Of a stretch of 64,000 nucleotides of DNA, positions 4,854-63,917 are shown in pieces. Both the position numbers and the translations under genes were made by a program. The notes beneath the pieces are model-generated. The model was not told where the DNA came from and searched no databases. It worked only from the letters and a program-made list of their open reading frames with translations. This stretch comes from an uncultured Chloroflexia bacterium (lineage in GTDB: Bacteria > Chloroflexota > Limnocylindria > Limnocylindrales > CSP1-4), in the NCBI GenBank assembly GCA_963800275.1, contig CAWDAI010000006.1:207130-271129 (forward strand), in the 5' to 3' direction. Every line of letters starts with the position of its first letter. Positions within the stretch are counted from its first letter, which is position 1.

Positions 4854-5321
4854 ATGGACGACCAGTGCCAAGCCAAGACCGTCCCCGCGGCGAGGGAACA
4901 TCAGCTCGGTGGGGGGTTGGTGGAGTTCGCCCTGGTCCTGCCATTGCTCGTGCTTGTGATGCTTGGGTTGTTCGACGGTGGCCGGGCGATCATCTTCTAC
5001 TCAGAGTTGTCGAACGCCTCACGCGCCGGCGCTCGCGTGGCAATGGTCAACCAGTCGAACGATGCGAGTTGCTCGGGTAGCGAGCCCACGTTCAAGTGCG
5101 CCGCTGCTGCGCAGACGAGTGGTACTGGACTGACCGCCTCTGATATCGGCGACCTCACGATCGAGGGGGACGACTGCGCCCTCATCAACGCATGCAGTGT
5201 GACAGTGAAGGTGGAGTACACCTACGAGCCGATCACACCGGTCATCGGCGACCTGATCGGTCCGATCGATCTGGTGGCTGAGTCCACGATGCCCATCGAA
5301 CGCCAGCACACGGGCCCATAG
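4854..5321 (+). CDS. TadE-like minor pilin (module B, gene 2)
   Basis: [47 protein letters not shown]. 155 aa. Confidence 0.65.
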   Translation: MDDQCQAKTVPAAREHQLGGGLVEFALVLPLLVLVMLGLFDGGRAIIFYSELSNASRAGARVAMVNQSNDASCSGSEPTFKCAAAAQTSGTGLTASDIGDLTIEGDDCALINACSVTVKVEYTYEPITPVIGDLIGPIDLVAESTMPIERQHTGP

Positions 5322-5324
5322 GAG

Positions 5325-6533
5325 ATGCACATGGACACGAGGCACTTCGGCTCGCGCGAAGGAGGGCAAGTCTTGCCACTCTTCGCGCTTGGGCTTGTCA
5401 CCCTCATCGCTGCCATCGCGCTCGTGCTGGACGGCGGCTTCGCTCTCGCGAAGCATCGCGAAAGCCAGAATGCGAGCGACGCGGCGGCCGAGGCTGGCGC
5501 AGTCGTCTTGGCGGAGCACCGATCTGGTGCCGACCGAACGGATTCCGAAGTGTGGGATGCCGTACAGGGTGTCCTCACCGCGATGGGCATGGATGTTGTT
5601 GGTTCCAGCGCCGAGTACACCAGGATCGATGGGACCGGACTTGGGCTGATGGTCGGCGAGAGCGGCGGTTCTGCGTCCGCCCCACCACCAGCGGCGTGGG
5701 GAGTCACCGTCAATGGTTCGTTGCCTGTCGACACCTTTTTCGCACGCGTCATCGATATCGACGAGTTCGACGCAGCGACGACGGCAACTGCCATAACCGG
5801 GTATGGCAAGCCCGCGGGAACTACGCTGCTTCCTGTCACGCCACCGATCACGATGGTCACGTGTGATGGCACCAACCGGCCGCTGAGCACGGCAACGCGA
5901 TGGGGCACAGAACAGATCTACAAAGTGCCCCTGTGCTCCAACGGTGCCGGCAATGTCGGTTGGTTGGATTGGTCAGACGAATACGACGAGAATGAGGGGG
6001 GCGGCAAGGTCGAGATCGAGGACCAGATCAGGAGTCCGTACATTCCCCCTCCAGGGATCTTGATCCCGGCGTGGCACCAAGTAGCCGAGACTGGCAGCCC
6101 GAACAAGATCGGGATCGAGGACGCCCTGCGAGAGCACGACGGTGAGATTGTCCTTCTTCCTATCTTCGATGCATGGTGCACAGGAGACGTGGAGCCGAAC
6201 AGCGACGGGGTTCTGGACTGCCCTGAGGGCGATGTGAGCCCAGTCGAGAGCCCCGATCCCAGTAACCCAGGTGGCGGCGCCAAGATGTGGTATCACCTCC
6301 AGGAGATCGCCGCGTTCGAGCTTTGCTCGCCGGCGATTGACGGCTGCACCGAGCATGGTGCGTACATCAACTCAGCGACCGAGGCCACCCAGATCTGCGA
6401 ATCGGGTAACGGATCCACGCGTTGTCTCGTTGGCAAGTTCGTCAACTTCATCCCAGGCCCGGGTTACGTCACCGGCGAGCTCGATACCACGGCTGGGCCT
6501 TCGAACTTCCTCGTCATCCAACTGATCAGGTAG
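5325..6533 (+). CDS. TadG-like pseudopilin (module B, gene 3)
   Basis: EGGQVLPLFALGLVTLIAAIALVLDGGFALAKHRESQNASDAAAEAGAVVLA, a TadG-type N-terminus. 402 aa. The 3-nt gap to the previous gene suggests co-transcription. Confidence 0.65.
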   Translation: MHMDTRHFGSREGGQVLPLFALGLVTLIAAIALVLDGGFALAKHRESQNASDAAAEAGAVVLAEHRSGADRTDSEVWDAVQGVLTAMGMDVVGSSAEYTRIDGTGLGLMVGESGGSASAPPPAAWGVTVNGSLPVDTFFARVIDIDEFDAATTATAITGYGKPAGTTLLPVTPPITMVTCDGTNRPLSTATRWGTEQIYKVPLCSNGAGNVGWLDWSDEYDENEGGGKVEIEDQIRSPYIPPPGILIPAWHQVAETGSPNKIGIEDALREHDGEIVLLPIFDAWCTGDVEPNSDGVLDCPEGDVSPVESPDPSNPGGGAKMWYHLQEIAAFELCSPAIDGCTEHGAYINSATEATQICESGNGSTRCLVGKFVNFIPGPGYVTGELDTTAGPSNFLVIQLIR

Positions 6534-31517: not shown

Positions 31518-32158
31518 CCACGGCAGGGGAGGCGCGCGCCTTCGGCATCCTCGGAGGCACGTTCGACCCGGTCCACGAGGGCCATCTCGCGCTCGCGCGC
31601 GAGGCGCTGCGGGAGCTCGACCTCGATCATGTGCTCTTCGTGCCCAATGCCGACCCACCTCACAAGCAGGACCAGGTCATCACCCCGGCGAACGACCGGG
31701 AGGCGATGGTGGCCCTCGCGGTCGAACCCGAGTCGGGCTTGCGGCTATCGCGCATCGAGCTTGACCGGCCCGGACCGTCGTACACGGTGGACACGGTGGC
31801 GGAGCTGGCGGCGCGTGCCCGCCGCGAAAGCCGTCCCGAACCGTGGTTCGTGATGTCCGCGGAGGTCCTCGATGACTTCGAGACCTGGCGCGAGCCCGAA
31901 CGGATCCTGCAGCTGTGCCGCATCGCCGTCGGGCCGCGGCCGGGCACGGAACCGCTCGATGACCGTTGGGTGGAGGCGCGGTTCCCGGGCTGCGGCTCAC
32001 GCTTCGCCTTCCTGCCCGGCCCGGAACTGGACATCGCCAGCACCACCATCCGCGAGCGGGTGGCGCGAGGTGAACCGATCGACACGCTGGTGCCCGCCCC
32101 CGTGCGACGCTACATCGACGTACACGGGCTCTACCGCATGCATGCGCCCGCTCGGTGA
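31514..32158 (+). CDS. nadD: Nicotinate-nucleotide adenylyltransferase
   Basis: GTG overlaps the obg stop (GTGA). FGILGGTFDPVHEGHL (HxGH nucleotidyltransferase motif). The ORF could also start at GTG 31487. Confidence 0.8.
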   Translation: MTTAGEARAFGILGGTFDPVHEGHLALAREALRELDLDHVLFVPNADPPHKQDQVITPANDREAMVALAVEPESGLRLSRIELDRPGPSYTVDTVAELAARARRESRPEPWFVMSAEVLDDFETWREPERILQLCRIAVGPRPGTEPLDDRWVEARFPGCGSRFAFLPGPELDIASTTIRERVARGEPIDTLVPAPVRRYIDVHGLYRMHAPAR

Positions 32159-43066: not shown

Positions 43067-45661
43067 TCAGCGCACGACGATGTTGACGAGGCGTCCCCCG
43101 ACATGGATGACCTTGACGATCTGCTTGCCCTCGAGGTTGGCCTGCACCCTGGGTTGCGCCATGACGATGGCCTCCAGCTCGTCTTGCGCCAACCCCGGCG
43201 CGACCAGCACCTTGTCGCGCAGCTTGCCGTTGATCTGGACCGGCAGCTCCACCATCTCTGCTGCCACCAGCGCCTCGTCGAACGCCGGCCACGACTCGGT
43301 ATGGATCGAGCGCCATCCTGCCCCACGCGCCTCCAGCCGCCGCGACCACAGCTCCTCGGCGATATGCGGCGCCTCCGGCGCCAGCATCAGCAGGAGCAGG
43401 CTGACCGCCTCGTCATAGGCGGGTGTCGCCGCCGCGGGCGTGCCGCGGTGCTTCATGAGCGTGTTGGTCAGCTCCATGAGCTTGGCCACGATGGTGTTCC
43501 AGCGGAAGCCCGCCTGGTCCGCGGTGACGCCCGCCAGGGTCTTGTGCGCGGCCACGCGCAGCGCCTTCTCCGCCGCCGCGAGATCCTGGCCGCCCGGCAG
43601 CGCGCCGGCTTCGGAGTCGCCGGGTTCCCGGCCGTGTGGGTCCAGCGAGACGGTCCAGACGCGCCGCAGGAAGCGGTTGATGCCCTCGATGCCTTGCGGG
43701 TTCCACGGGCCACCCTGGTCCCACGGCCCCATGAACATGAGGAACAAGCGGACCGTGTCCGCACCATAGCGCGAGACGAGCTCGTCGGGATCTTGCACGT
43801 TGCCGCGCGACTTGGACATGCGTTCACCATCGGCGCCCAGGATCTGACCCTGGTTGAAGAGGCGCTTGAAGGGTTCGCGCGCGCTGGTCACGCCGATGTC
43901 GTTGAGGGCCTTGGCGAAGAAGCGGCTGTAGAGCAGGTGCATGACCGCGTGCTCCGCGCCACCGGTGTACTGGTCGACCGGCGTCCAGCGGGCCGCGAGG
44001 TCCTTGTCGATGGCCACGTCGTCCGCGTGCGGCGAGAGGTATCGCCAGTAGTACCAGGAGCTGTCCACGAACGTGTCCATGGTGTCGGTCTCGCGCCGGG
44101 CAGGAGCGCCGCAGCGGGGGCAGGTCGTGTGCAGGAACGATTCGTTCGTCTCGAGTGGGTTGCCGCCGCCCTCCGGGTAGCTGAAGTCGTCCGGCAGCAG
44201 CACCGGCAGGTCGTTCTCCGGCACCGGCACGATCCCGCACTCGGCCGAGCAGTAGACGGCGGGGATGGGCGTACCCCACGCCCGCTGGCGGCTGATGAGC
44301 CAGTCGCGGATGCGATAGGTGACCGCGGCCTCGCCCTGGCCACTGGCCTCGAGGTCCTGCACGATGGCCGCGAACCCCTCCGCCCAGGGCAGGCCGCTGT
44401 AGGGCCCCGAGTTCACCAGCCGAGCCCGCTCATCCTTGGCCGGGTAGGCCTCGTCGAGTGGCGCATCGTCGGCGTCATCGGGTCCGGCCACCACGCGCCT
44501 GATCGGGATGTCGAACTTGCGCGCGAACGCGAAGTCACGCTCATCGTGCGCGGGCACGGCCATGATGGCGCCGGTGCCATAGCTCGAGAGCACATAGTCG
44601 GCGATCCAGATGGGGATGCGTTCGCCGTTGACGGGGTTGATGGCGTCCGCGCCGAGGGGCACGCCGGTCTTCTCGCGCTCGGTCGAGAGCCGCTCGATCT
44701 CCGTCTGTCGACGAGCGGCGGTGATGTAGGTCTCGACGGCCTCCCGCTGTGTCGGGGCCGTCAGCTCGGCGACCAGTGGATGCTCCGGCGCGAGCACCAT
44801 GAAGGTCGCGCCATAGAGGGTGTCTGGTCGGGTCGTGAAGACGCGCAGCTCCTCGCCGCCCGCGTGATGGTCTGACGGAGCGGTGTGGAAGGTGATGTCG
44901 GCACCCTCGCTGCGGCCGATCCAGTTGGTCTGCATCAGGCGCACGGGCTCGGGCCAGTCGAGACCCTCGAAGGAGAGCAGCTCGTCCGCGTAGCGGGTGA
45001 TGCGGAAGAACCACTGCTCCAGGTCGCGCTTGACGACCGGGGTCCCGCAACGCCAGCAGACGCGATCGACACCCTCCACCTGCTCTCGCGCGAGCACCAC
45101 CTGGTCTTTGGGGCACCAGTCGACCGGCGCCATCTGGCGGTAGGCCAGTCCGGCCTTGAGGAACTGCAGGAAGATCCACTGGTTCCACTTGTAGTACTCG
45201 GGCTGGCAGGTGACGACCTCCGCCGACCAGTCGAAGGTGGCGCCCATCGTACGCAGCTGGCGGCGCATGTTGGCGATGTTCTTCATGGTCCACTCGGCCG
45301 GGTGGACGCCGCTCTTGATGGCCGCGTTCTCCGCCGGCAGCCCGAAGGCGTCGAAGCCGATGGGGAAGAAGACGTTGTCGCCGTTCATGCGCCGATAGCG
45401 GCTGATGGCATCCGAGGGCGTGGTGATGTACCAGTGGCCGATGTGCAGGTCGCCCGATGGGTAGGGGTACATCGTGAGCAGGTAGTAGTCGGGCTTGCCG
45501 GTCGCATCGAGGTCGGTGTGGTGGAGCCCGAGCTCTTCCCAGCGCTGCTGCCAGCGAGGCTCGATCGTGGACGCGTCGTAGCGATCGATCGTGGAACGCT
45601 CAGCTGAGCCGTCGGCGTGTTGCGCGCCGCCGGCTGGGCCGTCCTGGACGGGGCTGCTCAT
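43067..45661 (-). CDS. leuS: Leucine--tRNA ligase
   Basis: Start MSSPVQDG at ~45661. [11 protein letters not shown] (HIGH motif). KMSKS motif (ERMSKSRGN). CP1 editing-domain hallmarks. 864 aa. Confidence 0.95.
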
Positions 45662-45733
45662 GCGTGGATCCTCACCGATGTCTGGCCGTGCGGGCCGGCC
45701 GAGCTGTGGTTCCGGGCTGGGCCGGAATGACAA

Positions 45734-45756
45734 GACCCCCGTCGGTGACGGGGGTC
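45734..45756 (-). terminator. Hairpin downstream of tRNA-Ala(GGC)
   Basis: Near-perfect inverted repeat GACCCCCGTC-ggt-GACGGGGGTC. On the minus strand it is followed by TTGTCATTCC. Confidence 0.4.
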
Positions 45757-45771
45757 CGCGTTGGGGTCGGG

Positions 45772-45847
45772 TGGTGGAGCGACGGGGACTTGAACCCCGG
45801 ACCTTCTGCATGCCATGCAGATGCTCTCCCAGCTGAGCTATCGCCCC
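45772..45847 (-). tRNA. tRNA-Ala (anticodon GGC), CCA encoded
   Basis: Reverse complement GGGGCGATAGCTCAGCTGGGAGAGCATCTGCATGGCATGCAGAAGGTCCGGGGTTCAAGTCCCCGTCGCTCCACCA. G3:U70 Ala identity pair. Anticodon loop AT-GGC-AT. T-loop GGTTCAAGTCC. Confidence 0.85.
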
Positions 45848-45869
45848 GTGCGGCGCATCATACCGAATC

Positions 45870-46592
45870 ATGGCAAACCCCGCGACCACTCGCCATCCGT
45901 ACATGGTGCGCCGCTCCGACCGCGCTCGGCGGGCACGGGTGATGGTGGACCGTGAAGGCCGGACGGTCGTGGTCCTGCCGCGCCGATGGCCGCTCGTCGA
46001 AGCCGAGCGGCTGGTGGCCCGGCACGCGGCCTGGATCGAGCGTCACGTCTCGCGGATCACGATCGTCCAGGCGAGGCTCGGCACACGTCCGACGCTGGGG
46101 GAGGGGCGGGTCCTGAGCGTGGCCGGTGAGACGCTGCGGGTATCGGTGGTCGACGGCGTGTCCGCTCGCCCGGCGCGCGGCCGAGTGGAGGCGGTGCCCG
46201 GGGGCCTGGTGGTGCGGCTGGGCCGGGACGGACGCGACACGGCGGCGGTGCTCGAGCCCTGGCTGCGAGTCCGGGCACGGGAGGTGCTCCAGGCCCGGGT
46301 CGCGGCGCGGGCGGCCGAGATGGAGGTGCTGCCGGGACGCCTGACGATCCGCGACCAGACCAGCCGCTGGGCGTCGGCATCGGCGAGCGGATCGCTCTCG
46401 TTCAGCTGGCGGCTGGTGCTGGCGCCGCCGTTCGTGCTCGATGCGGTCGTGGTCCACGAGCTCGCACACCTGCGCATCCGCAACCATTCGCGACGCTTCT
46501 GGGAGCTGGTCGAGCGGTACGCGCCGCGCACCGCGGAGGCGCGTCGGTGGCTGCGCGAACATGCCCCCGAGCTGCGCGCGGCCCTGGACTAA
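45870..46592 (+). CDS. YgjP-like metal-dependent hydrolase (DUF45/WLM-type, HExxH)
   Basis: C-terminal [18 protein letters not shown] (HExxH...NHS) signature of the YgjP/DUF45 family. Confidence 0.75.
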
Positions 46593-51936: not shown

Positions 51937-52012
51937 TGGTGGAGATGAGGGGACTCGAACCCCTGGCCTCTGCGATGCGAACGCAGCGCTCTCCCAGCTG
52001 AGCTACATCCCC
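51937..52012 (-). tRNA. tRNA-Ala (anticodon CGC), CCA encoded
   Basis: Reverse complement GGGGATGTAGCTCAGCTGGGAGAGCGCTGCGTTCGCATCGCAGAGGCCAGGGGTTCGAGTCCCCTCATCTCCACCA. G3:U70. Anticodon loop TT-CGC-AT. Confidence 0.85.
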
Positions 52013-53710: not shown

Positions 53711-54895
53711 TCAGCGACCGCTGCCGGGCAGTGATGGGCCTGCCGGCAGGCTGAACCAGAAACGCGTCAGCCCGGAGCTCGATTCGGCACCCACGCGGCC
53801 ACCCCAGCCCTCTACCAGCTGCTTGACGATGGCCAGCCCGATGCCGGCGCCACCGCGTGCCCGGTCACGTGATTTCTCCACGCGATAGAAGCGCTCGAAG
53901 AGGCGCGGCAGGTCCTCGGCCGGGATGGACTCGCCGCTGTTGGTGATGCTCACGAGCAGGGTGTCGTCGCGCTGCTCGGCCGCCAGCACGACGGTCCCAC
54001 CCGCGGCCGCATAGCGGGCCGCGTTCTGCAGCAGGTTGGCCAGCACCTGGGCCAGCTGATCGGGGTCGGCTCGTGCGGGCAGGGCTCGCGGCCAGTGCCG
54101 TTCGAGGCGCAGGCGGCGGGCATCGAAGGTGGGGCGCGCCAGCTCGGCCGCGGCCGTCATGATCGCGGCCAGGTCGACATCGAGCGGGTGCGCGGGCTTG
54201 CCCGCCGCATCGCCCTGAGCCAGGTCGTCGAGCGAGCGAGCCAGCCGCACCAGGCGCTCGGTCTCCTCCAGCAGTGATTCGTAGGTGCTCGCCTCGGGCC
54301 TGATGACACCGTCCCGGATGGCCTCGACATAGCCCTCCAGGTTGGTCAGGGGCGTGCGCAGCTCGTGGGCCGTGTTGGCGATGATGTCGCGACGCTGGCG
54401 CTCGCTCTCCTCCAGCTCGGCCGCCATCTGGTTGAAGGAATCGGCCAGGCTGGCCAGCTCGTCGGGCGCGGCCCGGGGCACGCGGATGGCGAGGTCGCCC
54501 GCGGCCAGACGTCGAGCGGCGGCGCCGACCTCCGCCAGCGGCCGGGCGATCATGCGCGAAAGCACGACGGCCAGGACGATGCTGGCGACGACGGCCACGC
54601 CGATGGCCAGGAAGAGCAGCTCCCGCACGGAATCGTCGAACATGGCGTAGGCGTGGCTGGTGCTCTCGCCCTGCTCCATGGCCTCCATGAGCACGTGCGC
54701 CAGCTCGTTGCGAAAGGCCCAGATGCCGGCGGCCACGATGCCCACCGTCAGCAGCGTGGAGGCGATGCCGACGAGCGCGATGCGCCAAGCCAGGCCCCGC
54801 CCGAAGGCCGGGCGCTGACCGATCCCCGGTCGAGGGTCGCGGCTCACGGTCTGCTCAGGACTCGTCGAGCGTGGGTGCGGCTCGGTAGCCGACAC
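53711..54895 (-). CDS. Sensor histidine kinase (HAMP-HisKA-HATPase_c)
   Basis: Two TM segments. HAMP (LAEVGAAARRLAAGDL). H-box ANTAHELRTPLTNL. N/G boxes (LLQNAARYA, GGAGIGLAIVKQLVE). Confidence 0.85.
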   Translation of the reverse strand: MSATEPHPRSTSPEQTVSRDPRPGIGQRPAFGRGLAWRIALVGIASTLLTVGIVAAGIWAFRNELAHVLMEAMEQGESTSHAYAMFDDSVRELLFLAIGVAVVASIVLAVVLSRMIARPLAEVGAAARRLAAGDLAIRVPRAAPDELASLADSFNQMAAELEESERQRRDIIANTAHELRTPLTNLEGYVEAIRDGVIRPEASTYESLLEETERLVRLARSLDDLAQGDAAGKPAHPLDVDLAAIMTAAAELARPTFDARRLRLERHWPRALPARADPDQLAQVLANLLQNAARYAAAGGTVVLAAEQRDDTLLVSITNSGESIPAEDLPRLFERFYRVEKSRDRARGGAGIGLAIVKQLVEGWGGRVGAESSSGLTRFWFSLPAGPSLPGSGR

Positions 54896-55622
54896 CGCGC
54901 ACGGTCATGACATAACGGGGTCGATCGGCATCATCCCCGAGCTTCTCGCGTAGGCGGCCGATGTGGACGTCGATGGTCCGGTCGAGCACATCGCCATCGT
55001 CGGAGCCGTACACCGCGTCGAGCAGCTGGTCACGGGTGAGCGCCCGTCCATCGGCTGCGACCAGGGTCACCAGCAGCTTGAACTCGACGGGGGTCAACGG
55101 GATCAGGCTGCCGTCGCGGCGGACCTCGTAGCGCTCCGTGTCGATGCGCAGGTCGTTCTGGGCCAGGACCGCCGGTGTCGCCGACTCCGCGGAGGTGCTC
55201 GATGCCGGACCGCCGGCGCGCCGCAGCACGGCCTTCACGCGCACCACCAGCTCGGCCGGGCTGAAGGGCTTGGGCAGGTAGTCGTCGGCACCCCGCTCGA
55301 GGCCGATGATGCGCTCGGGCAGCGAGCTGCGAGCGGTGAGCATCAGCACCGGCACCTGGCTGTCTGCGCGGAGCAGGCGCATGACCTCGTAGCCATCGAC
55401 CTCCGGCAGCATCAGGTCGAGCACGATGAGCGCGGGATCCTCGGCCCGGGCCTGGCGCAGGGCCTCACGGCCGTCATGGGCGGCGATGACGGTGAAGCCC
55501 TCGCGCTCGAGATAGGCGCGTACGAGGGCCACGATCTTGCGGTCGTCATCGACGACGAGGATGGGCCGAGCGGGGATGGCCGGCTCGGCGTTGGGCGTGA
55601 GGGTAGGCATCAGGCTGTTCAT
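54855..55622 (-). CDS. OmpR-family response regulator
   Basis: Receiver ILVVDDD...DLMLP.. and winged-helix C-terminus ...LTPVEFKLLVTLV...RTIDVHIGRLREKL...YVMTVRGVGYR. Overlaps the kinase gene start. Confidence 0.85.
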   Translation of the reverse strand: MNSLMPTLTPNAEPAIPARPILVVDDDRKIVALVRAYLEREGFTVIAAHDGREALRQARAEDPALIVLDLMLPEVDGYEVMRLLRADSQVPVLMLTARSSLPERIIGLERGADDYLPKPFSPAELVVRVKAVLRRAGGPASSTSAESATPAVLAQNDLRIDTERYEVRRDGSLIPLTPVEFKLLVTLVAADGRALTRDQLLDAVYGSDDGDVLDRTIDVHIGRLREKLGDDADRPRYVMTVRGVGYRAAPTLDES

Positions 55623-55678
55623 GCTAGCGCCGCAGTCTCGCGGGCTTCGGTGACAGCGACGTGACACTTGACGAAATA

Positions 55679-55690
55679 GAACGGATGTTC
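55679..55690. promoter_or_regulatory. Cheo-type LexA (SOS) box upstream of imuA
   Basis: aTAGAACGGATGTTCGAt = GAAC-N4-GTTC palindrome directly upstream of the imuA-like ORF. TTGACG -35-like hexamer ~15 nt upstream. Confidence 0.6.
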
Positions 55691-55691
55691 G

Positions 55692-56648
55692 ATGATTCGT
55701 CGGGCCATGGAACGGTCATCAGCGCCTCTCGGCAGTGCTCTCGCCACCCTCCAGACCCGCTGGGGCAGTGCTGCCGTCCGGCTGGGTAACGGCAACCCGG
55801 TCGGTGCGGTGGCACCAGCGGATCGGATGGTCGGAGATGCGCCGGCCGTCCATGGCGCCCTCGCCCTCTCGGCGCTCCCGGACTCCCACCCGGGGGCGCC
55901 GCAGCCCATGCCGAACCGGTCCGTCATCTCCACCGGGTTCCCCTTGCTGGATGCGGTCCTCGGACCAGCGGGCCTGCCGGCGGAGGCGAGCGTCGTGGTT
56001 CGCGGCGGGCCCTCCAGCGGCAAGACCACGTTGGCCCTGCGCTGTGTGGCGGAGGCCCAGGCGGACGGGGACATCGTGGTCTGGCTCGACCTGGGCCGAG
56101 CCTTCGATCCGGTGGAGGCGGTCGGCCGCGGCGTGGATCCGCGCTGGTTACTGGTCGTGCGCCCAGCGGATCCCCAGGAGGGCCTGGACCTCGCAGCGGC
56201 CCTGCTGGCAGGCCGTTCCATCGGCCTGTTGGTCGTGGACCTGCCGGCGCGTGCTCGCGGACGGCTCGATGACGGACTGCGCCGCCTCGCGGCCCATGCT
56301 CGGCGGGTAGGCGCACGCTTCATCGCGCTGGAGCCGGACCGGGCGCCTGGCGCGGTGCAGGCCGTGCTGGCGCGCAGCACGGGCCTGCGGCTGGAGTTGG
56401 AGCGGCAGGCATGGCTGCGCCTGGGGCCGGACGTGGTGGGTCAGCGCACGGCCGTGGTCGTGGCCAAGAACCGCTATGGACCACCCGGACAGCGGGTGGA
56501 GCTGGACATCCACTACCTGGCCGATGGCGAACGGGCCCTGGCTGCACACCAGCTGACCACCGACGAGGGCGGGATCGCCGGCGAGCCGATACCCATCCGC
56601 CTGGAGCCGGTGCCACCGTCCCGATCATCACGGCCGGTCCCGGCCTGA
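55692..56648 (+). CDS. imuA: ImuA-like RecA-fold SOS mutagenesis protein
   Basis: FPLLDAVLGPAGLPAEASVVVRGGPSSGKTTLALR (RecA/SulA-like P-loop). Immediately precedes an ImuB-like gene. LexA box upstream. Confidence 0.65.
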   Translation: MIRRAMERSSAPLGSALATLQTRWGSAAVRLGNGNPVGAVAPADRMVGDAPAVHGALALSALPDSHPGAPQPMPNRSVISTGFPLLDAVLGPAGLPAEASVVVRGGPSSGKTTLALRCVAEAQADGDIVVWLDLGRAFDPVEAVGRGVDPRWLLVVRPADPQEGLDLAAALLAGRSIGLLVVDLPARARGRLDDGLRRLAAHARRVGARFIALEPDRAPGAVQAVLARSTGLRLELERQAWLRLGPDVVGQRTAVVVAKNRYGPPGQRVELDIHYLADGERALAAHQLTTDEGGIAGEPIPIRLEPVPPSRSSRPVPA

Positions 56649-56679
56649 CCACCGACCCTCTACCGCCATCGATCGAGCC

Positions 56680-57915
56680 ATGCGCCTGCTGTACCTGGAC
56701 TGGCCGCACCTGCCCATCCGCCTGGCCCTGGGCCACGAGCCCGCACCCGATGAGCCCGTCGTGCTCGGTGGGCGGCCGTGGGACCCGGGCGTGGTGCTCG
56801 ACCGCAGTCCCGCTGCCGGTGCCCTGGGTGTGCGCCGGGGGCAGCCCCTGGGCACGGCCCACAGCCTGGTCCCGGAAGCGCTGTTCCTGCCCCTGGAGCC
56901 GGCCATCCTGGCTGACCCGTTCGAGGCCGCGCTGGAGGCACTGGGTGGCCTCGCCCCGGCAGTGGAAGGGGAGGTCGACCCGGCCGACCCACGGTTCGGT
57001 CAGGTCCTCCTGGGGATCGAGGGCCTGGAGCGGCTGTGGGGTGACGAGGCGGCACTCGTGCGCCGGGCCCTGGCGCTCACCGCACCATTGCTGCCGGGCT
57101 GCCCCCGGACCGGCATCGGCAACACCCGCTTCGGGGCGGCGGTGGCCGCCCGGCTGGGCGCCGGCATCATCCCGCCCGGCGGCCGGCGGGAGGAGGCTGC
57201 CTTCCTGGCGCCACTACCGCTGGGGCTGCTGCCGGTGGACCCGTCCGTCCATGAGCGCCTGCGCGTGCTCGGCCTGGAGACCATGGGTCAGCTGGCCGCG
57301 CTCGACCACGCCGCGGTGGTGGCCCGCTTCGGTTCGGCCGGTGAGTCGATGCACGACCTGGTCCGTGGTCTGGACCGGCGGCCGCTGCGTCCCCGGCGCC
57401 CCCTGGAGCACCTGGTCGCGGACGTGGAGCTGGACCCGCCGGCGAGCGAGCTCGAGCCGCTGCGTTTCGTGCTGCACCACCTATGCGGAACGCTCTGCGC
57501 GCAGTTGTCAGCCCGCGGAGCGGGAGCAGCGCGGGCGACGCTGACGGTGACCCTGGAACGATCAGAGCGAGACCCGGCACCCCGCACGTGGACCTATGGA
57601 CAGGCCTTGCCGGAGCCATCCGCCGCCGCGGAGCTGCTGGAGCGCCTGCTCATGGCCCGCCTGGAGGCGGAGCCGCCATCAGCGCCGGTCGAGCGGCTGG
57701 CCCTACAGCTCGATGGCACGGCGCCGGAGGCGGGCCAGCAACTGGCCCTGTTCGACCGGCAGGGCATACAGGCCGGACGTCTCGAGTGGCAGCTGGCCAG
57801 CCTCGCGGTCCGGTTCGGTCACGATCGCGTGCTGCGAGCGGTCATCGCAGACGCGGACGACCCGGTGGCCGAACGGCGCTTCGGCTGGCAGGACACGGCG
57901 GTGGCCGAGCCGTGA
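56680..57915 (+). CDS. imuB: ImuB (Y-family polymerase-like, SOS mutagenesis accessory)
   Basis: MRLLYLDWPHLPIRLAL...GQPLGTAHSLVPEALFLPLEP N-terminus typical of ImuB/DinB-like fold. Lacks the obvious catalytic acidic triad context. 411 aa. Confidence 0.7.
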   Translation: MRLLYLDWPHLPIRLALGHEPAPDEPVVLGGRPWDPGVVLDRSPAAGALGVRRGQPLGTAHSLVPEALFLPLEPAILADPFEAALEALGGLAPAVEGEVDPADPRFGQVLLGIEGLERLWGDEAALVRRALALTAPLLPGCPRTGIGNTRFGAAVAARLGAGIIPPGGRREEAAFLAPLPLGLLPVDPSVHERLRVLGLETMGQLAALDHAAVVARFGSAGESMHDLVRGLDRRPLRPRRPLEHLVADVELDPPASELEPLRFVLHHLCGTLCAQLSARGAGAARATLTVTLERSERDPAPRTWTYGQALPEPSAAAELLERLLMARLEAEPPSAPVERLALQLDGTAPEAGQQLALFDRQGIQAGRLEWQLASLAVRFGHDRVLRAVIADADDPVAERRFGWQDTAVAEP

Positions 57916-58160
57916 CCCGTTTGCTGGGACAGCATCCACGCATCGAGGTGGAGCTGGATGACCGTGGCTGGCCGGTGGGCCTGCGCTGGCCTGGCGTGCG
58001 CGAGCCCGTCGAGGCCTGCAATCACTGGCGGGTGGAGGAGGCCTGGTGGCGCCGGCCGCTGGTGCGCGACTACTTCAAGGTCGTCGGTCCGCGCGTGCTG
58101 GCGCTGGTCTACCGGGATGCCCTCGATGACACGTGGCACCTGGAACGTCTCTATGACTAA
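57912..58160 (+). CDS. Small hypothetical protein translationally coupled to imuB
   Basis: GTG overlaps the imuB stop (GTGA). 83 aa, VTRLLGQHPRIEVELDDRGWPVGLRWPGVREPVEACNHWRVEEAWWRRPLVRDYFKVVGPRVLALVYRDALDDTWHLERLYD. Protein-like composition unlike surrounding shadow ORFs. Confidence 0.35.
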   Translation: MTRLLGQHPRIEVELDDRGWPVGLRWPGVREPVEACNHWRVEEAWWRRPLVRDYFKVVGPRVLALVYRDALDDTWHLERLYD

Positions 58161-58331
58161 GGAGATGAACGCAACATCACATCCGGGCTACCCACGATCC
58201 TGCCGTACGGCCAGAGCATGCTGGTGGTGTGGTCGCAGATCGCGGGGCTGGTCGCCGCCACCATCGTGGCCTTCGCCGCGGCCTACATCGCCTTCATGCG
58301 CCAGGAGGTGCGTGCCTGATCGGGTCTCGGG

Positions 58332-59231
58332 CTAGTAATCGGAGAGGCGCGGCGGGTTCGCGGGCGGCTGGCGCAGCATGCGTGGCTTGCGCTTGACGTT
58401 CAGGGGCAGCACCACGAGTGGGTCCACGCGCTCCCTCGCGTACCCCGGATAGCCGCGGTCGCGTGCGCTCTCATGGACCTTCATGAGCGGCCCGTCCATG
58501 CGCACCAAGCGGTACCGCATCATCTGCTTCCGCTCGGCCAGGGACATGTAGCCGATGGGCTGGGCAGCCTTGACCTTGTCTCCCGGCTCGACCAGCAGGT
58601 CCTTCAGCTCGGTGTAGACGCTGTAGTAGCCATTGCCGTCATCGATGACGATCCCCAGCGGGAACTGCGGCTTCTTGCTCTTCTTCTTGCTCGGGTCGGC
58701 GAAGTGCTTGTAGACCTCGTCGAGCGGGCTATCGAAGCCGACGTACTCGGCCCAGTCCCTCCCGGCGGCCACGACCACACCCTTGTGGGCGGCCTTGACC
58801 ACGGCGCCCTCGTCCCAGGTGATGAGCAGGCCGTCGTGGATACGCTTGCCATCGACTTCGAAGTCGCCGCGCTCGTCCGGTGCGTAGTAGGTGTGGATTT
58901 CGCCACCCCGGACCGGCCACACGTAGCCCCGCAACTTGTCTGGCGACTTGGAGGTCGGCGGGGCCTCGATCCTGAGCGGTGCCGCCTGCGCCGGATCGAG
59001 TGAGGGGAGAGGGCTCTCGAGGGCGACATCACCGGTCACCGGAGGTTCAGCCTCGGCGTACTGGGGAACGACCATGACGATGGCCAGGACCGCGGCGATG
59101 ACGGCAACCAGAAAACCGCCGGTGATCAGCCCAGAGAGAGCGTCACGGCGCGCAGCGGGGTCTGTTTGCTGGCCCGCTCGCGCCGAGGGCACGGACGTCG
59201 TTCGCAGGCCCCTATCTGCCACTGCCGGCAT
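58332..59231 (-). CDS. Membrane-anchored LytM/M23-like domain protein (probably non-catalytic)
   Basis: Start MPAVADRG at ~59231. One TM helix. C-terminal region with M23-like topology (YVWPVRGGEIHTYY...GIVIDDGNGYYSVYTELKDLLVEPGDKVKAAQPIGYM) but without an HxH motif. Confidence 0.4.
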   Translation of the reverse strand: MPAVADRGLRTTSVPSARAGQQTDPAARRDALSGLITGGFLVAVIAAVLAIVMVVPQYAEAEPPVTGDVALESPLPSLDPAQAAPLRIEAPPTSKSPDKLRGYVWPVRGGEIHTYYAPDERGDFEVDGKRIHDGLLITWDEGAVVKAAHKGVVVAAGRDWAEYVGFDSPLDEVYKHFADPSKKKSKKPQFPLGIVIDDGNGYYSVYTELKDLLVEPGDKVKAAQPIGYMSLAERKQMMRYRLVRMDGPLMKVHESARDRGYPGYARERVDPLVVLPLNVKRKPRMLRQPPANPPRLSDY

Positions 59232-59291
59232 TGTAGCAACTCGCCGCTGTTGACAGGACGCACCAGCGCACGCTGGGGCACTCGAATGCGG

Positions 59292-59307
59292 TAGAACATC
59301 TGTTCTA
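59292..59307. promoter_or_regulatory. Cheo-type LexA (SOS) box in the divergent promoter region of dnaE2 and the M23-like gene
   Basis: TAGAACATCTGTTCTA is a perfect 16-nt palindrome (GAAC-N4-GTTC). Immediately followed by TAATAT, a -10-like hexamer. Confidence 0.65.
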
Positions 59308-59318
59308 ATATCAGGCCG

Positions 59319-62300
59319 GTGACGGCCTTCGCGGAACTTCATTGCCACTCCGATTTCTCGTTCCTCGACGGCGCGTCTCCGGCCGACGACCTGGTGGAGC
59401 GAGCGCTCGAGCTGGGCCTGGCCGGCCTCGCGGTGACCGACCACCAGGGCCTCTATGGCGCGGTCCGTTTCAGCGCCGCCGCGCGTGAAGCCGGCTTGCA
59501 TCCGCTCATCGGCATGGAGATCGAGCTGGTGGACCCGGTCGTGCCCGACCCGGCGCGGATCGTGGTCCCGCCGCGTCGGCCTGCCCGCCGGGCGCCGAGT
59601 CCTCCGCCGGCCGTCGCCACGCGCGGGGCGCCGGGCGTCCGGATCGAGACGCGACGCCTGCGCCCGCCGGGCCATCGGCGCCCACGCCGCGAAGACCTGC
59701 GGGGGGTGCGGCCGCGCGAGCTCGGTCCGCACTTGACACTGCTGGCGCGCGACCAGGCCGGCTACGCCAGCCTCTGTCGTCTGGCCAGCGCGGCCCACCT
59801 CGCCGGCACCAAGGGCGTGCCCCGCTTCAGCCACGAGCTGCTCGAACGACACCGCGAGGGCCTGCTCGTGCTCAGCGGATGTCGCCACGGGGAGCTGTCG
59901 CGACGCCTGCTGGCGGGAGACCGCGAGGGGGCGGCCCGGGCCCTGGAGCGGTTGGCGCGAGTGGTGGCCCGCGACGGGCTCTACGTGGAGTTGCAGCATC
60001 ACCTGCTGCCAGATGACAGCTGGCTGACCGCGGAGCTGGCGCGGCTGGCGCACGAGGCCGGCCTGCCCACGGTCGTGACCAACGGCGCCCACTACGCCCT
60101 GCGCTCGGACCGCGAGCTGCAGGACGTGCTCGTCTGCATCCGCCACGGCGCGGACTCTCGATGGCAGCACGCACCTGCGCCGGCCAATGCCGAGTACGCG
60201 CTCAAGAGCGGTGCTGAGCTGGCGGCACTACCCCCCGGCCGAGACCTCGACCCGCTCGTGCGCCACGCCTGGCTCGACGGCATCAAGCGCAGCGGTGAGA
60301 TCGCCGCGCGCTGCCAGGTCGATCTCGAGTTCGAGCGCTATCGTTTCCCGGGCTTCCCGGTGCCGGGGGGAGAGACGCCGTTCTCCTACCTGGAGCGGCT
60401 CTGCCACGATGGCTGCGCGGCGCGCTACCACCCCATCACGCCGCCGGTGCTCAAGCAGCTGGCCCACGAGCTGGAGGTCATCGAGCGCACCGGCCTGGCC
60501 GAGTTCTTCCTCATCTGCTGGGATCTCATGGGCTTCGCGCGCGATCGGGGCATCCCGGCCCAGGGGCGCGGCAGTGCGGGCGACTCGATCGTGGCGTACG
60601 TACTGGGCATCACGCGTGTCGATCCCATCCGCCATCAGCTGCTCTTCGAGCGCTTCATCAACGAGGGCCGCACCACCTACCCCGACGTGGACATCGACTT
60701 CGCCTCCTCCCGTCGCGAGGAGGTGATCCAGTACGTCTACGAACGCTACGGCCCCGAGCACACGGGCATGGTCTGCAACATCGTCACCTATCGCGCCCGC
60801 TCGGCCGTACGCGAGGTGGGCTACGCACTGGGCTTCCCGCGCCCGCTGGTGGATCGGGTGGCCAAGGCGCTCGAGACCTATGACTCGGTGATGGTGCGGC
60901 GGGACCTGGAGGCGGACGGCGGGTTCGCCGAATTCTTCGCCGAGCCGGGTGGTGGCGGAGAGCGTGCACCGGCTGCTCGACGACATGGGCGAGCTGGCGA
61001 CCAACCGACGCGAGGCTGCTCGGGCACACGCCGTCGCCTGCGCGGCGGGTGCACCACCGACGACGAGGGCGGCCCCGGCGCCAGGCGACACCCCCGCGAG
61101 CGAGCACTATCTGCGCCACGAGCGCGCGGCGCGGCCCTGGCCTCGCTGCGGGAGAGGGTGGCCCCGACAGCACGGCGGCCGGCCCGTAGCGGAGGCGGAG
61201 CGCCGGATCATCCCGACCAGGCGTGGGAGGCGGTCGAACTCGACCCGCTGCCGCCACGCCGTCGCGGCTCCACCCTCGGCCTCTCGCCCTGGGACCGCTG
61301 GCTCGAGCTGTGCGCGCGGATCGACGGCGTCCCCGGCACCTCTCGATCCATGTCGGGGGCATGCTCGTGACGCGCGCGCCGCTCGTGGACATCGCTCCGC
61401 TCGAGCGTGCCACCATGCCCGGGCGCGTGGTGGTCCAGTTCGACAAGCGCGACATCGAGACGATGAAGCTGATCAAACTCGACCTGCTCGGCCTGCGCAT
61501 GCTCAGCGCCATCGATGACGCCCTGCGTGACATCCGCGCCGACTGCGCGGTCGACCTTGACCTGGACCGCCTGCCGGAGGACATCGAAGAGGTCTTCCGC
61601 ATGATCGTCGCGGCGGACACGGTCGGCGTCTTCCAGATCGAGTCACGGGCCCAGATGCAGACGCTGCCCAAGAGCCGGCCCCGGACGCTCGATGACCTGG
61701 TGGTGGAGGTGGCCATCATCCGGCCCGGACCCATCCAGGGCGATGCCGTCCATCCCTACCTGCGCCGCCGGCAGGGGCTCGAGCCGGTGACCTACCTGCA
61801 CCCGTCCCTGGAGCCGATCCTCTCCGAGACGCTGGGCGTGATCCTCTACCAGGAGCAGGTCATGCGCATCGCCATCGATGTGGCCGGCTACAGCGCCGCC
61901 GAGTCCGATGGCTTCCGCCGGGCCATGGGCACGTGGCGCTCGACGCGCGAGATGGAACGGCTCCACCGGGGATTCGTGGATGGCTGCATGGCCACCAGCG
62001 GCCTGACCGGGGCGCAGGCGGAAGAGCTCTTCACCAAGGTCGCGGGTTTCGCCAGCTTCGGCTTCAACAAGAGTCATGCCGCGGCCTTCGCACGCACCGC
62101 CTACGAGTCGGCCTTCCTCAAGCTCTTCTACCCGGCACAGTTCGTGACCGGGCTCATCAACGCCCAGCCGATGGGCTTCTACCCGGTCGAGGTGCTCATC
62201 AACGACGCCAAGCGCCACGGGGTGGCGGTGCTGCCACCGGACGTCAACGCCAGCCGCTTCCGGACCACGACCGAGTGGGTCGGCCTGCCCGGTACGCCAC

Positions 62301-63203
62301 TGCCGACGGGGACCGGGATCGAGGCGCGGCCGGAGGTGGTGGCCTCGTCCGCGGTGGTCGTCCCCGCAGACGAGGCGCGCGAACGGCTCGCAGCCCCGGC
62401 CGCGCGAGGCTACGGCATCCGCCTGGGCCTGGGCCTGGTCAAGGGCATCGGCGAGGCGGAAGGGGAGGCGCTCGATGCGGCGCGCTCCGGGGGCGGGCCG
62501 TTTCGCTCGCTGGCCGACCTGGTGGCCCGAACCGGGCTGGACGAGGAGGTGGTCGAGCGGCTCATCCGGGCGGGTGCGCTCGATCCACTGGGCCAGCCGC
62601 GGCGCGAGGCACTGTGGCAGCTGCGCGAGGTCGCGGGCGCTACCCGCGGTCGGACCGACGGGCGCACGGTCCGGTCGCCACGAGCCGCTGGGCGGCCGCT
62701 GGATATCCGCCTGCCGCCGACGCCGGCGCCCGACCTGCCACCACCGACGGAGCTGGAGCGATTGGGCGATGCCTACGCCATCCTCTCGCTCGACGCGCGC
62801 CACCAGGTCATGGAGCTCTATCGTCCGGCCCTGCAGCAGCTGGGGGCGTGCACGCTGGGAGAGTTGTCGGATCGCCGTCCCGGGCGGGTGGCGATCGGTG
62901 GGCTGGTGGTCACTCGCCAGCACCCCATGACCGCCAAGGGCACGGTCTTCCTCGCGCTGGAGGACGAGACCGGCATGGTCAACGTGACCCTCTGGCCTCG
63001 GACCTGGGGGCGGCTGCGCGGTGTCGTCAGGCGGCACGCGCTGCTCTACGTGGAGGGCCAGCTGCAGGTCGAATTCAGGTGTCATCAACCTGGTGGCGCG
63101 GCAGGTGCGGCCGCTGATCGAGGTCTGTCGTACGGCCGGCGGTCCGGAGCAGCCTCGTGGCGTCCGACAGCTGGGTCACGCCGGCATGCGTCGGCTGGGT
63201 TGA
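59319..63203 (+). CDS. dnaE2: Error-prone DNA polymerase DnaE2/ImuC (PHP + polymerase core), several apparent frameshifts
   Basis: PHP N-terminus MTAFAELHCHSDFSFLDGAS. Polymerase core FDKRDIETMKLIKLDLLGLRMLS. The C-terminus GVINLVARQVRPL is in the frame of ORF 63021..63203. Frame changes near ~60960, ~61130, ~61345 (CCCC run) and ~63075. Confidence 0.7.
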
Positions 63204-63209
63204 ACCGAG

Positions 63210-63917
63210 CTAGCTCTCGCTGGAGGACTTGCTCGAGCCCTTGCGGCGAGCCTCGCGTTCGGCGAACTTCTGCGCGCGCAGGGTCTCGCGATCGGCCCGT
63301 GCCTGCTCCTTGGCCTTGGCCGCCTGCTCGCGATCACGCTGGGCGCGGTTGGCCGCGGCCCGCTCCTGCGAGGAGCGCAGGAAGCGGCGATACCAGGCCG
63401 CGAAGCCGCCCGCGAAGACGCCGATGACGACGCCCAGGCCGAGCGTCTGGATGATCAGGTCCGTGCTGATGGCCGGGACCGTACCGCCGGTCGAGGAGGT
63501 GAGGGCGTCGGTGCTGGTGGGCGCCGCGTCGATGGCGAGCGAGACCACGACCAGGTAGACGATGGCGCTGAGAAGACCGAGTACGCCACCCACGAGGTAC
63601 GAACCACGCGGCGCGAGGAAGCCGCCGATGAAGAAGATGAACAGGCTCGTCGGGTGCAGCGTCAGGCTGATGTAGAGCGTGAGGACGTCCCGGACCGGAT
63701 TCGGCAGGTCGTCGAGCGCGCCATTGACGAGGGCGATCCCCAGGATCAGCGTCAGCGCCAGCAGGCCGAAGGGCAGCCACACCAGCTTGCGACTGAGGAA
63801 GATCTCCGGCAGGTGCCGCAGGTCGTCGCCGACGTTGGGCATCTGGATGACCGATGACCGTTTCTGTGGCTCCTCGGCGACGATGGCTGCCGGCGCTTCA
63901 GCGCCATCGGCGGTCAC
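63210..63917 (-). CDS. Hypothetical membrane protein with basic coiled-coil C-terminus
   Basis: Four TM segments, then ERAAANRAQRDREQAAKAKEQARADRETLRAQKFAEREARRKGSS. Start uncertain (internal ATG at ~63842 possible). Confidence 0.45.
   Translation of the reverse strand: MTADGAEAPAAIVAEEPQKRSSVIQMPNVGDDLRHLPEIFLSRKLVWLPFGLLALTLILGIALVNGALDDLPNPVRDVLTLYISLTLHPTSLFIFFIGGFLAPRGSYLVGGVLGLLSAIVYLVVVSLAIDAAPTSTDALTSSTGGTVPAISTDLIIQTLGLGVVIGVFAGGFAAWYRRFLRSSQERAAANRAQRDREQAAKAKEQARADRETLRAQKFAEREARRKGSSKSSSES

Follow-up and report, generated by a model that had tools for sequence, protein, structure and literature searches.

A conserved split imuA-imuB and dnaE2 locus with two LexA-type boxes in Limnocylindria-like Chloroflexota: a probable SOS mutasome and its divergent LytM-like neighbour

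A stretch of 64,000 nucleotides from an uncultured Chloroflexia bacterium (contig CAWDAI010000006.1, positions 207,130 to 271,129; referred to below, at its full length, as the window) carries homologs of the SOS mutagenesis genes imuA, imuB and dnaE2, with a membrane protein gene of the M23 (LytM) type lying on the opposite strand between imuB and dnaE2. Two palindromes of the Cheo type stand in front of imuA and dnaE2. The locus raises the question of whether both parts of such a divided cassette are under LexA control and, if so, whether the gene between them is drawn into the same regulon. A preliminary description of this DNA had proposed both. Our analysis upholds the split SOS mutagenesis cassette, as its two Cheo-type boxes have an operator-like placement and are conserved in 23 related genomes, and does not uphold the second proposal. 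We consider it likely that the locus is an SOS mutasome of Limnocylindria-like Chloroflexota, composed of two LexA-repressed units which run in the same direction, with the M23-like gene outside LexA control.

Box 1 (TAGAACGGATGTTCGA) occupies positions 55677-55692 in front of imuA and box 2 (TAGAACATCTGTTCTA) positions 59292-59307 in front of dnaE2. Both are perfect GAAC-N4-GTTC palindromes and both were found where the preliminary description had placed them, the interval 55679-55690 which it gave being the 12-nt core (GAACGGATGTTC) of the 16-mer it quoted; the TAATAT which it reported after box 2 is also present, at 59305-59310, and overlaps the end of the box. The window contains four GAAC-N4-GTTC sites where 0.48 are expected, a number reached in none of 100 shuffles. 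The remaining two, at 31838 and 33339, are intragenic, lying in coding sequence without A/T flanks, and a relaxed search of the window for AGAAC-N4-GTTCT with up to two mismatches gave 11 matches, where 9.3 are expected, and no further credible sites. Conservation was analyzed in a comparative set obtained by a one-genome-per-species scan with the M23-like family alignment, which yielded 23 related Limnocylindria-like Chloroflexota loci amounting to about 285 kb; 22 of them reach imuA, and all statements on box 1 rest on these. By the names of its homologs the host belongs to Chloroflexota, near Candidatus Limnocylindrales. The set contains 46 GAAC-N4-GTTC sites, 23 of them upstream of dnaE2, 22 upstream of imuA and a single one elsewhere, for a chance expectation of about 2.5 estimated from base composition. 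Box 1 is at the same position in 22/22 loci, and box 2 was found in 23/23 as well as in the additional sequence L149. The intergenic DNA is otherwise variable among the 23 genomes, with both boxes kept in position and sequence. The consensus over the loci is (A/G)ATAGAACA(G/T)(A/C)TGTTCTAT(C/T) for the dnaE2 site and TAGAACAGATGTTCGATGAT for the imuA site; the N4 of this clade is strongly biased to ATCT/AGAT and the flanks are T-A (TAGAAC...GTTCTA). The two intragenic sites of the window do look accidental, and in principle the promoter palindromes could be chance occurrences too; because the boxes are conserved this explanation is already refuted, and we give it a negligible probability.

The position of the boxes with respect to the promoters points in the same direction. 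A promoter scan of 55500-59500 called a single sigma-70-like site, which is that of imuA (55668-55696, plus strand), with a -35 of TTGACG at 55668-55673, a 17-nt spacer and a -10 of GATGAT at 55691-55696. Box 1 fills the spacer and overlaps the -10 by 2 nt. The TTGAC and a hexamer of the form [GT]A[TC][GT]AT are conserved in 22 loci. The longest open reading frame (ORF) of imuA begins at 55692, with an ATG inside this hexamer; as this ATG is lost in four relatives (L002, L003, L012, and L021), where the hexamer reads TACGAT or TACTAT, the hexamer is a -10 rather than a start codon, and ATG 55707 is probably the conserved start. In two further relatives (L011 and L013) imuA and the response regulator gene are parted by about 300 nt of repeat-rich inserted sequence, and box 1 remains with imuA. 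At dnaE2 the right arm of box 2 abuts or overlaps a conserved TAnnAT hexamer (here TAATAT), the putative -10, and the gap between the box and the GTG start is 12-14 nt in 25/25 sequences, 13 nt in the window. This short distance of box and -10 from the GTG implies a dnaE2 mRNA that would be leaderless or nearly so. Both boxes overlap the core promoter as it is placed by predicted transcription start sites. A TAnnAT-type hexamer stands 7-8 nt before the GTG of the M23-like gene (59222-59235) and of dnaE2 (59305-59321) and 10 nt before the ATG of imuA (55691-55709); no Shine-Dalgarno sequence is evident at these three starts, all of which appear leaderless or nearly so.

That the protein which binds both boxes and represses from them is LexA is probable from the motif and from its occurrence elsewhere. 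GAAC-N4-GTTC is an established, experimentally defined LexA motif of Firmicutes and Actinobacteria (PMC3323433). The Cheo box of Bacillus subtilis, CGAAC-N4-GTTCG, has the same palindrome over the core promoter and differs in having C-G flanks where the present boxes have T-A, together with the N4 bias of this clade. Closer to the present host, Fernandez de Henestrosa and co-workers reportedly found in 2002 that the LexA of a member of the Chloroflexi, Dehalococcoides ethenogenes, binds a GAAC-N4-GTTC motif. We also collected metagenome matches to TAGAACA-NN-TGTTCTA, a sample of at least 120 sites on environmental contigs, as indirect evidence. Among the matches listed, the pattern is directly upstream of lexA in three contigs (L029, L048, and L054) and of recA in two (L024 and L090), as LexA autoregulation predicts, and other imuA, imuB or dnaE2 genes also lie downstream of it. 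A homolog search with the LexA of one of these, the high-GC locus L054, led to two lexA loci on long contigs, likewise environmental (L144 and L146), in which the box is within a TTGACA...TATAAT promoter (TTGACA, then AGAAC-N4-GTTCTATAAT). In both of these loci lexA is followed by an FtsK/SpoIIIE-like ATPase and then by one or two small ORFs (L144 2930-6100; L146 2950-5410), with an additional small ORF in L146 showing a faint match to DUF6504, the ImuB-C-like family; they may represent an uncharacterised SOS operon. A repressor other than LexA with a similar recognition sequence could in theory be served by the palindromes, since the comparison lexA loci are not placed in this clade and since other phyla have regulators that act on dnaE2 and imuB after damage independently of LexA, among them PafBC of mycobacteria and DdiA of Myxococcus. 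Against this, the motif matches exactly the LexA box established by experiment in Gram-positive bacteria, and the same 16-mer pattern precedes lexA and recA in environmental contigs, so that we hold a non-LexA repressor to be very improbable.

The preliminary description further proposed that the M23-like gene (58332-59222, minus strand), being divergent from dnaE2, probably shares LexA control through box 2. The divergent region was given as 87 nt, which is correct for a start at ATG 59231; with GTG 59222, which is the conserved start, it measures 96 nt. The gene has a candidate promoter of its own at 59230-59266 (minus strand), comprising a -10 of TACAAT (59235-59230) located 7 nt before the GTG and, further upstream, an 18-nt motif, GTTGACAGGACGCACCAG (59249-59266). 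A TAnnAT-type hexamer is found 7-8 nt before the start in 25/25 sequences, one relative having TACACT, and the 18-nt motif is kept in all loci at a variable spacing of 13-16 nt from the -10. Whereas box 2 keeps its fixed distance to dnaE2, the distance from the M23-like start upstream to the first base of the box core varies between 71 and 83 nt, which puts the box beyond both the -10 and the upstream motif. Two relatives in which the divergent genes lie farther apart are informative. In L006, where an insertion (291 nt) separates the two genes, the box lies with dnaE2 and the M23-like gene has no box within 291 nt; L004 has acquired a membrane-protein gene (4866-6000, about 315 codons) at this place, so that the two genes are 1133 nt apart, and here too the box lies with dnaE2. 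In both, the M23-like gene retains its own -10 and the GTTGACAGGACGCACCAG motif. Two other roles considered for sequence at this motif were discarded. It contains a plus-strand TTGACA without a matching -10, and this TTGACA (59250) was rejected as a second dnaE2 promoter as there is no conserved -10 at 16-18 nt; shared two-component control, with the motif as a copy of the direct repeat found at the response regulator gene, was dropped because half-sites and spacing differ.

The neighbourhood itself tells little about the M23-like gene. Gene order is the same in 23/23 loci (histidine kinase, response regulator, imuA-imuB-imuB-C, the opposite-strand M23-like gene, dnaE2) and the genes flanking the locus on the outside are also syntenic; since the whole neighbourhood is syntenic, the position of the M23-like gene is inherited and uninformative on function. 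In two more distant dnaE2 loci (L059 and L109) the box is kept, the M23-like neighbour is absent and other divergent neighbours are found. The divergent neighbour in L059 (1279-2790) encodes a 503-aa secreted protein which looks like a GH18 glycosidase, a lipoprotein family (L109 3095-3679) is common to both contigs next to dnaE2, and in L059 a fusion of dnaE2 with cytochrome-oxidase-like sequence points to a contig that is chimeric or rearranged. Among the metagenome sites listed (at least 120), no M23 gene adjoins a LexA box, the only case being 3 kb away. From these comparisons it is most likely that the M23-like gene stands outside LexA control, has its own conserved leaderless promoter and lies beside dnaE2 by inherited synteny.

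Several observations weigh against the picture of two LexA-repressed units with an unlinked gene between them. The promoter scan of 55500-59500 called no promoter for dnaE2 or for the M23-like gene; outside the imuA promoter, -10 hexamers and start sites are predictions from conservation only. A tblastn search of the window for lexA and recA found neither, the sole match being the ImuA-like RecA paralog, and we infer LexA as the binding protein from motif identity and context. L004 carries a second GAAC-N4-GTTC (GAACCGTTGTTC, 5941-5952) in the intergenic region that the insertion created next to the M23-like gene, about 57 nt ahead of its start; the probability of an extra site there by chance is about 0.002, judged post hoc, so that the position is suspicious and some LexA input to the M23-like gene keeps a small probability. 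Lastly, the dnaE2 of the window is frameshifted twice, and the cassette may not be working in this particular genome. The last two of these observations each belong to an alternative explanation.

The L004 site bears on the possibility that box 2 is a shared operator, the M23-like gene being co-repressed with dnaE2 as a member of the SOS regulon, for example as a damage-induced envelope or division factor. This would fit the divergent arrangement of the two genes in 23/23 genomes and in L149, and in L004 the extra site lies close to the M23-like gene just where the insertion has displaced the dnaE2 box. Precedents also exist. YneA of B. subtilis is an SOS-induced division inhibitor that combines a LysM domain with a transmembrane helix, and ChiZ (Rv2719c) of Mycobacterium tuberculosis is a further SOS-induced bitopic peptidoglycan-binding division inhibitor. 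Such proteins are an established class, which the preliminary description overlooked when it called it non-standard for the SOS regulon to include a cell-wall remodelling factor; that remark is not accurate. The M23-like protein resembles them in having a single transmembrane pass and an extracellular peptidoglycan-related domain and in being divergent from an SOS gene; it differs from them in that YneA and ChiZ have LysM domains and a LexA box in their own promoter, whereas here the domain is a degenerate LytM and the box is outside the core promoter, so that the M23-like gene lacks the own-promoter box of a YneA/ChiZ-like division inhibitor. As to L004, the extra site has poor flanks (CC...CT) and one extra GAAC-N4-GTTC in about 285 kb is within chance. 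When the position and variable spacing of box 2, the arrangement in L006, the synteny of the full neighbourhood, which takes in the outer flanks as well as the kinase and regulator genes, the distant dnaE2 loci with a box and no M23-like gene, and the sampled box sites are considered as well, a shared operator seems unlikely to us. Somewhat more doubtful still is a wider proposal, in which a clade-specific LytM protein would be tied to the damage response as a YneA/ChiZ-like checkpoint, coupled to dnaE2 through back-to-back promoters or weak LexA sites such as the one in L004, alongside a four-part mutasome (ImuA-like protein, inactive Y-family polymerase, standalone ImuB-C, and DnaE2) of a composition reported absent by a 2019 survey. 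We keep to the reading in which the M23-like gene is outside LexA control.

The frameshifts concern dnaE2 (imuC; 59319-63203, plus strand), an error-prone C-family polymerase gene whose Pfam domains (PHP, DNA_pol3_alpha, finger, HHH_6, and OB) are split over two frames. Both halves find their best NCBIfam match in NF004225 ("error-prone DNA polymerase"), with 415 and 615 bits, the cut-off of 939 applying to an intact protein. The first frameshift (-1) is at 61328/61329, where the window has GG and L149 has GGG, the extra base being present also in 22 relatives; the second (+1) is near 63071, where an extra T gives GAATTCAGG as compared to GAATCAGG-type sequence in relatives. L149 is 95.6% identical and has an intact dnaE2 ORF of 1132 residues. 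The stop of the frameshift-corrected gene is at 63201-63203, and because of the two frameshifts both the overlap with the convergent ORF 63210-63917 and an apparent reading of 1369 codons are artefacts. It is possible that the frameshifts are real and that the cassette is decaying here, in which case the operators would regulate accessory genes without a functional polymerase. The 1-nt deletion and the 1-nt insertion are clear with respect to L149 and the 22 relatives, and about 5.3 kb comprising the kinase, regulator, imuA, imuB, imuB-C, and M23-like genes are free of frameshifts. Both changes, however, are single-base length differences in short runs, which are typical of assembly errors, and similar breaks occur in many related loci from metagenome-assembled genomes. 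The rest of dnaE2 has 87-95% protein identity to relatives and no stop codons, and two events falling in 3.9 of 9.2 kb are no significant excess (p ~0.18). Assembly error and recent pseudogenisation fit the data alike, and we give decay of the cassette in this genome a lesser though appreciable probability. Within the DNA_pol3_alpha (NTPase) domain, DnaE2 has an Arg/Gly/Pro-rich low-complexity insertion of about 110 aa (about 60950-61290), which varies among relatives in length and sequence.

The gene identities given in the preliminary description hold by Pfam and NCBIfam: the imuA product is a RecA-like paralog, the imuB product has the IMS and IMS_C domains, the divergent gene has a Peptidase_M23 fold and dnaE2 belongs with NF004225. 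The imuA-like gene (55707-56648, plus strand) encodes a RecA-fold paralog (Pfam RecA, 1.6e-22) with a Walker A motif, GPSSGKT. In NCBIfam its best scores are below cut-off for RecA (82 bits) and for ImuA_translesion (34 bits against a cut-off of 150), and the protein is accordingly described as ImuA-like by predicted fold and by position, not by family score. The imuB-like gene (56680-57915, plus strand) encodes a Y-family homolog without an ImuB-C domain, for which the ImuB-specific family models of the Pfam and NCBIfam scans gave no match. An alignment with Escherichia coli DinB shows P in place of D10 and G/Q at D103/E104, and the translation contains a beta-clamp-type motif, QLALF; this protein is predicted to be a catalytically inactive Y-family polymerase homolog.

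The third gene of this unit (57912-58160, plus strand) encodes an 82-aa standalone ImuB-C (DUF6504-like) protein, its GTG start overlapping the imuB stop (GTGA). It is a separate ORF every time in the 23 loci, with 80-91% identity; no other protein of the locus is as well conserved, apart from DnaE2 in its C-terminal part. An exhaustive HMMER search with the 82-aa ORF gave 227 representative homologs, which are mostly standalone and of about 82-86 aa; in some the domain instead forms the C-terminal end of a larger protein, either one with IMS/IMS_C (P0262, 538 aa) or a RecA-like one (P0217), and some members of the family match DUF6504. As homologs form the C-terminus of IMS/IMS_C proteins, the 82-aa ORF is identified as the ImuB-C module. 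ImuB-C is known as a standalone protein (PMC6511836), and in the survey of Y-family systems by Timinskas and Venclovas (2019) all variants with a standalone ImuB-C are without ImuA (PMC6511836). Here a RecA-like ImuA homolog lies upstream of the Y-family gene in 22/22 loci covering the site. The predicted combination of an ImuA-like protein with a separately encoded ImuB-C contradicts the statement of that survey and is a modest compositional novelty. From imuB-C to the 3' end of the M23-like gene there are 171 nt here (58161-58331), against about 30-45 nt in most relatives; this spacer encodes a peptide ending in ILPYGQSMLVVWSQIAGLVAATIVAFAAAYIAFMRQEVRA and a stop, which resembles the residual C-terminus of a putative membrane permease.

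The M23-like gene encodes a bitopic membrane protein with a degenerate LytM/M23 domain (Pfam M23, 2.5e-12; 47 bits against a cut-off of 28.7). In the family alignment a highly conserved cytoplasmic tail at the N-terminus (about 30 aa) is followed by a single transmembrane helix, then by the LytM domain and, at the C-terminus, by a conserved PPRLSDY; the family was met only in this clade. An AlphaFold model has a predicted local distance difference test score (pLDDT) of 76.5, its best fold matches being the LytM domains of DipM and EnvC (Foldseek probability 1.00), and the best sequence matches among solved structures include EnvC and SpoIIQ. In comparison with lysostaphin, the Asp of HxxxD is L/V/I, the catalytic His is E/G/N and HLH is RYR, the first His alone being kept; the LytM beta-fold is present and the residues of an active endopeptidase (HxxxD, H, HxH) are not. 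With the catalytic Asp and all but one of the four His substituted, the product is predicted to be a non-catalytic LytM protein and not a peptidase or hydrolase. The preliminary description was right about a membrane LytM-like gene divergent from dnaE2, and in place of the cell-wall remodelling factor that it suggested we see a protein most like regulators of the EnvC/DipM kind, not a remodelling enzyme. EnvC, NlpD, DipM, and SpoIIQ share with it a LytM fold without zinc or catalytic residues; it differs from them in its N-terminal transmembrane anchor, conserved tail of about 30 aa, Lys-rich insertion and PPRLSDY, and in being without coiled-coil or LysM domains.

Upstream of imuA, Pfam and NCBIfam scans identified a histidine kinase gene (53711-54895) and an OmpR-type response regulator gene (54855-55622), both on the minus strand. 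A conserved direct repeat, GTGACA-N5-GTGACA (GTGAC-N6-GTGAC; 55650-55666), with an 11-bp period lies between the response regulator gene and the -35 of imuA and is probably an autoregulatory site of the OmpR-type regulator; in L011 and L013 the full repeat remains with the response regulator gene after the insertion of about 300 nt. A scan of ten large ORFs in the window revealed no SOS gene, the products found being ComEC, LeuRS and ABC-transporter parts. An Rfam scan of the window gave only two tRNA genes, neither in the imu/dnaE2 locus, at 45775-45847 and 51940-52012 (minus strand). Since the long ORF 43067-45904 contains the first of these, LeuRS must have its start downstream of that tRNA gene.

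The mode of action that we propose for the locus follows known SOS systems. Unit 1 would consist of the imuA-like gene, the imuB-like gene and the standalone imuB-C, with its operator in the TTGACG-17-GATGAT spacer, and unit 2 of dnaE2, whose operator abuts or overlaps the -10 and ends 13 nt from a GTG of leaderless type. RNA polymerase would be blocked by a LexA dimer bound at either of the 16-bp palindromes; upon DNA damage, activated RecA would bring about the self-cleavage of LexA and both units would be derepressed together. For translesion synthesis, DnaE2 would then assemble with the RecA-like ImuA, with ImuB as an inactive, clamp-binding Y-family scaffold, and with the small ImuB-C subunit. 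While the current picture of the SOS response is unchanged by these findings, they would bring the LexA-regulated mutasome, and with it SOS boxes of the Gram-positive type, to an uncultured and little-studied lineage of soil and freshwater Chloroflexota, and they describe an operator-promoter layout, with apparently leaderless genes and a box fused to the -10, that is conserved over about two dozen species-level genomes. The tempting placement of a cell-wall gene in the SOS regulon is removed as unsupported, and the combination of an ImuA-like protein with a separate ImuB-C could help to explain the role of the latter.

A LexA-repressed split imuA-imuB/dnaE2 mutasome is a known kind of system and is probably what is met here, in a new lineage and with a minor compositional twist. 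In split imu cassettes it is the documented norm that each part has its own SOS box and that LexA controls both halves (PMC3901139). In M. tuberculosis, where imuA'-imuB and dnaE2 are separate, each unit has its own GAAC-N4-GTTC-type SOS box (Erill et al. 2006, reviewed in PMC3901139); as in the present locus, the RecA-like and inactive Y-family genes form one unit and dnaE2 another. The Chloroflexota locus differs in that the two units are about 1.1 kb apart with one opposite-strand gene between them, that ImuB-C is a separate gene, and in its host. In Deinococcus deserti the order is lexA-imuY-(243-bp ORF)-imuC, and the 243-bp ORF between imuY and imuC (PMC3901139) is comparable to the present 82-aa ORF. 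Mutasomes of the D. deserti and Kyrpidia tusciae types (PMC6511836, PMC3901139) have in common with the present one an inactive Y-family polymerase, a separate ImuB-C of about 80 aa and DnaE2; these variants are without ImuA, whereas in the Limnocylindria-like locus an ImuA-like homolog is present.

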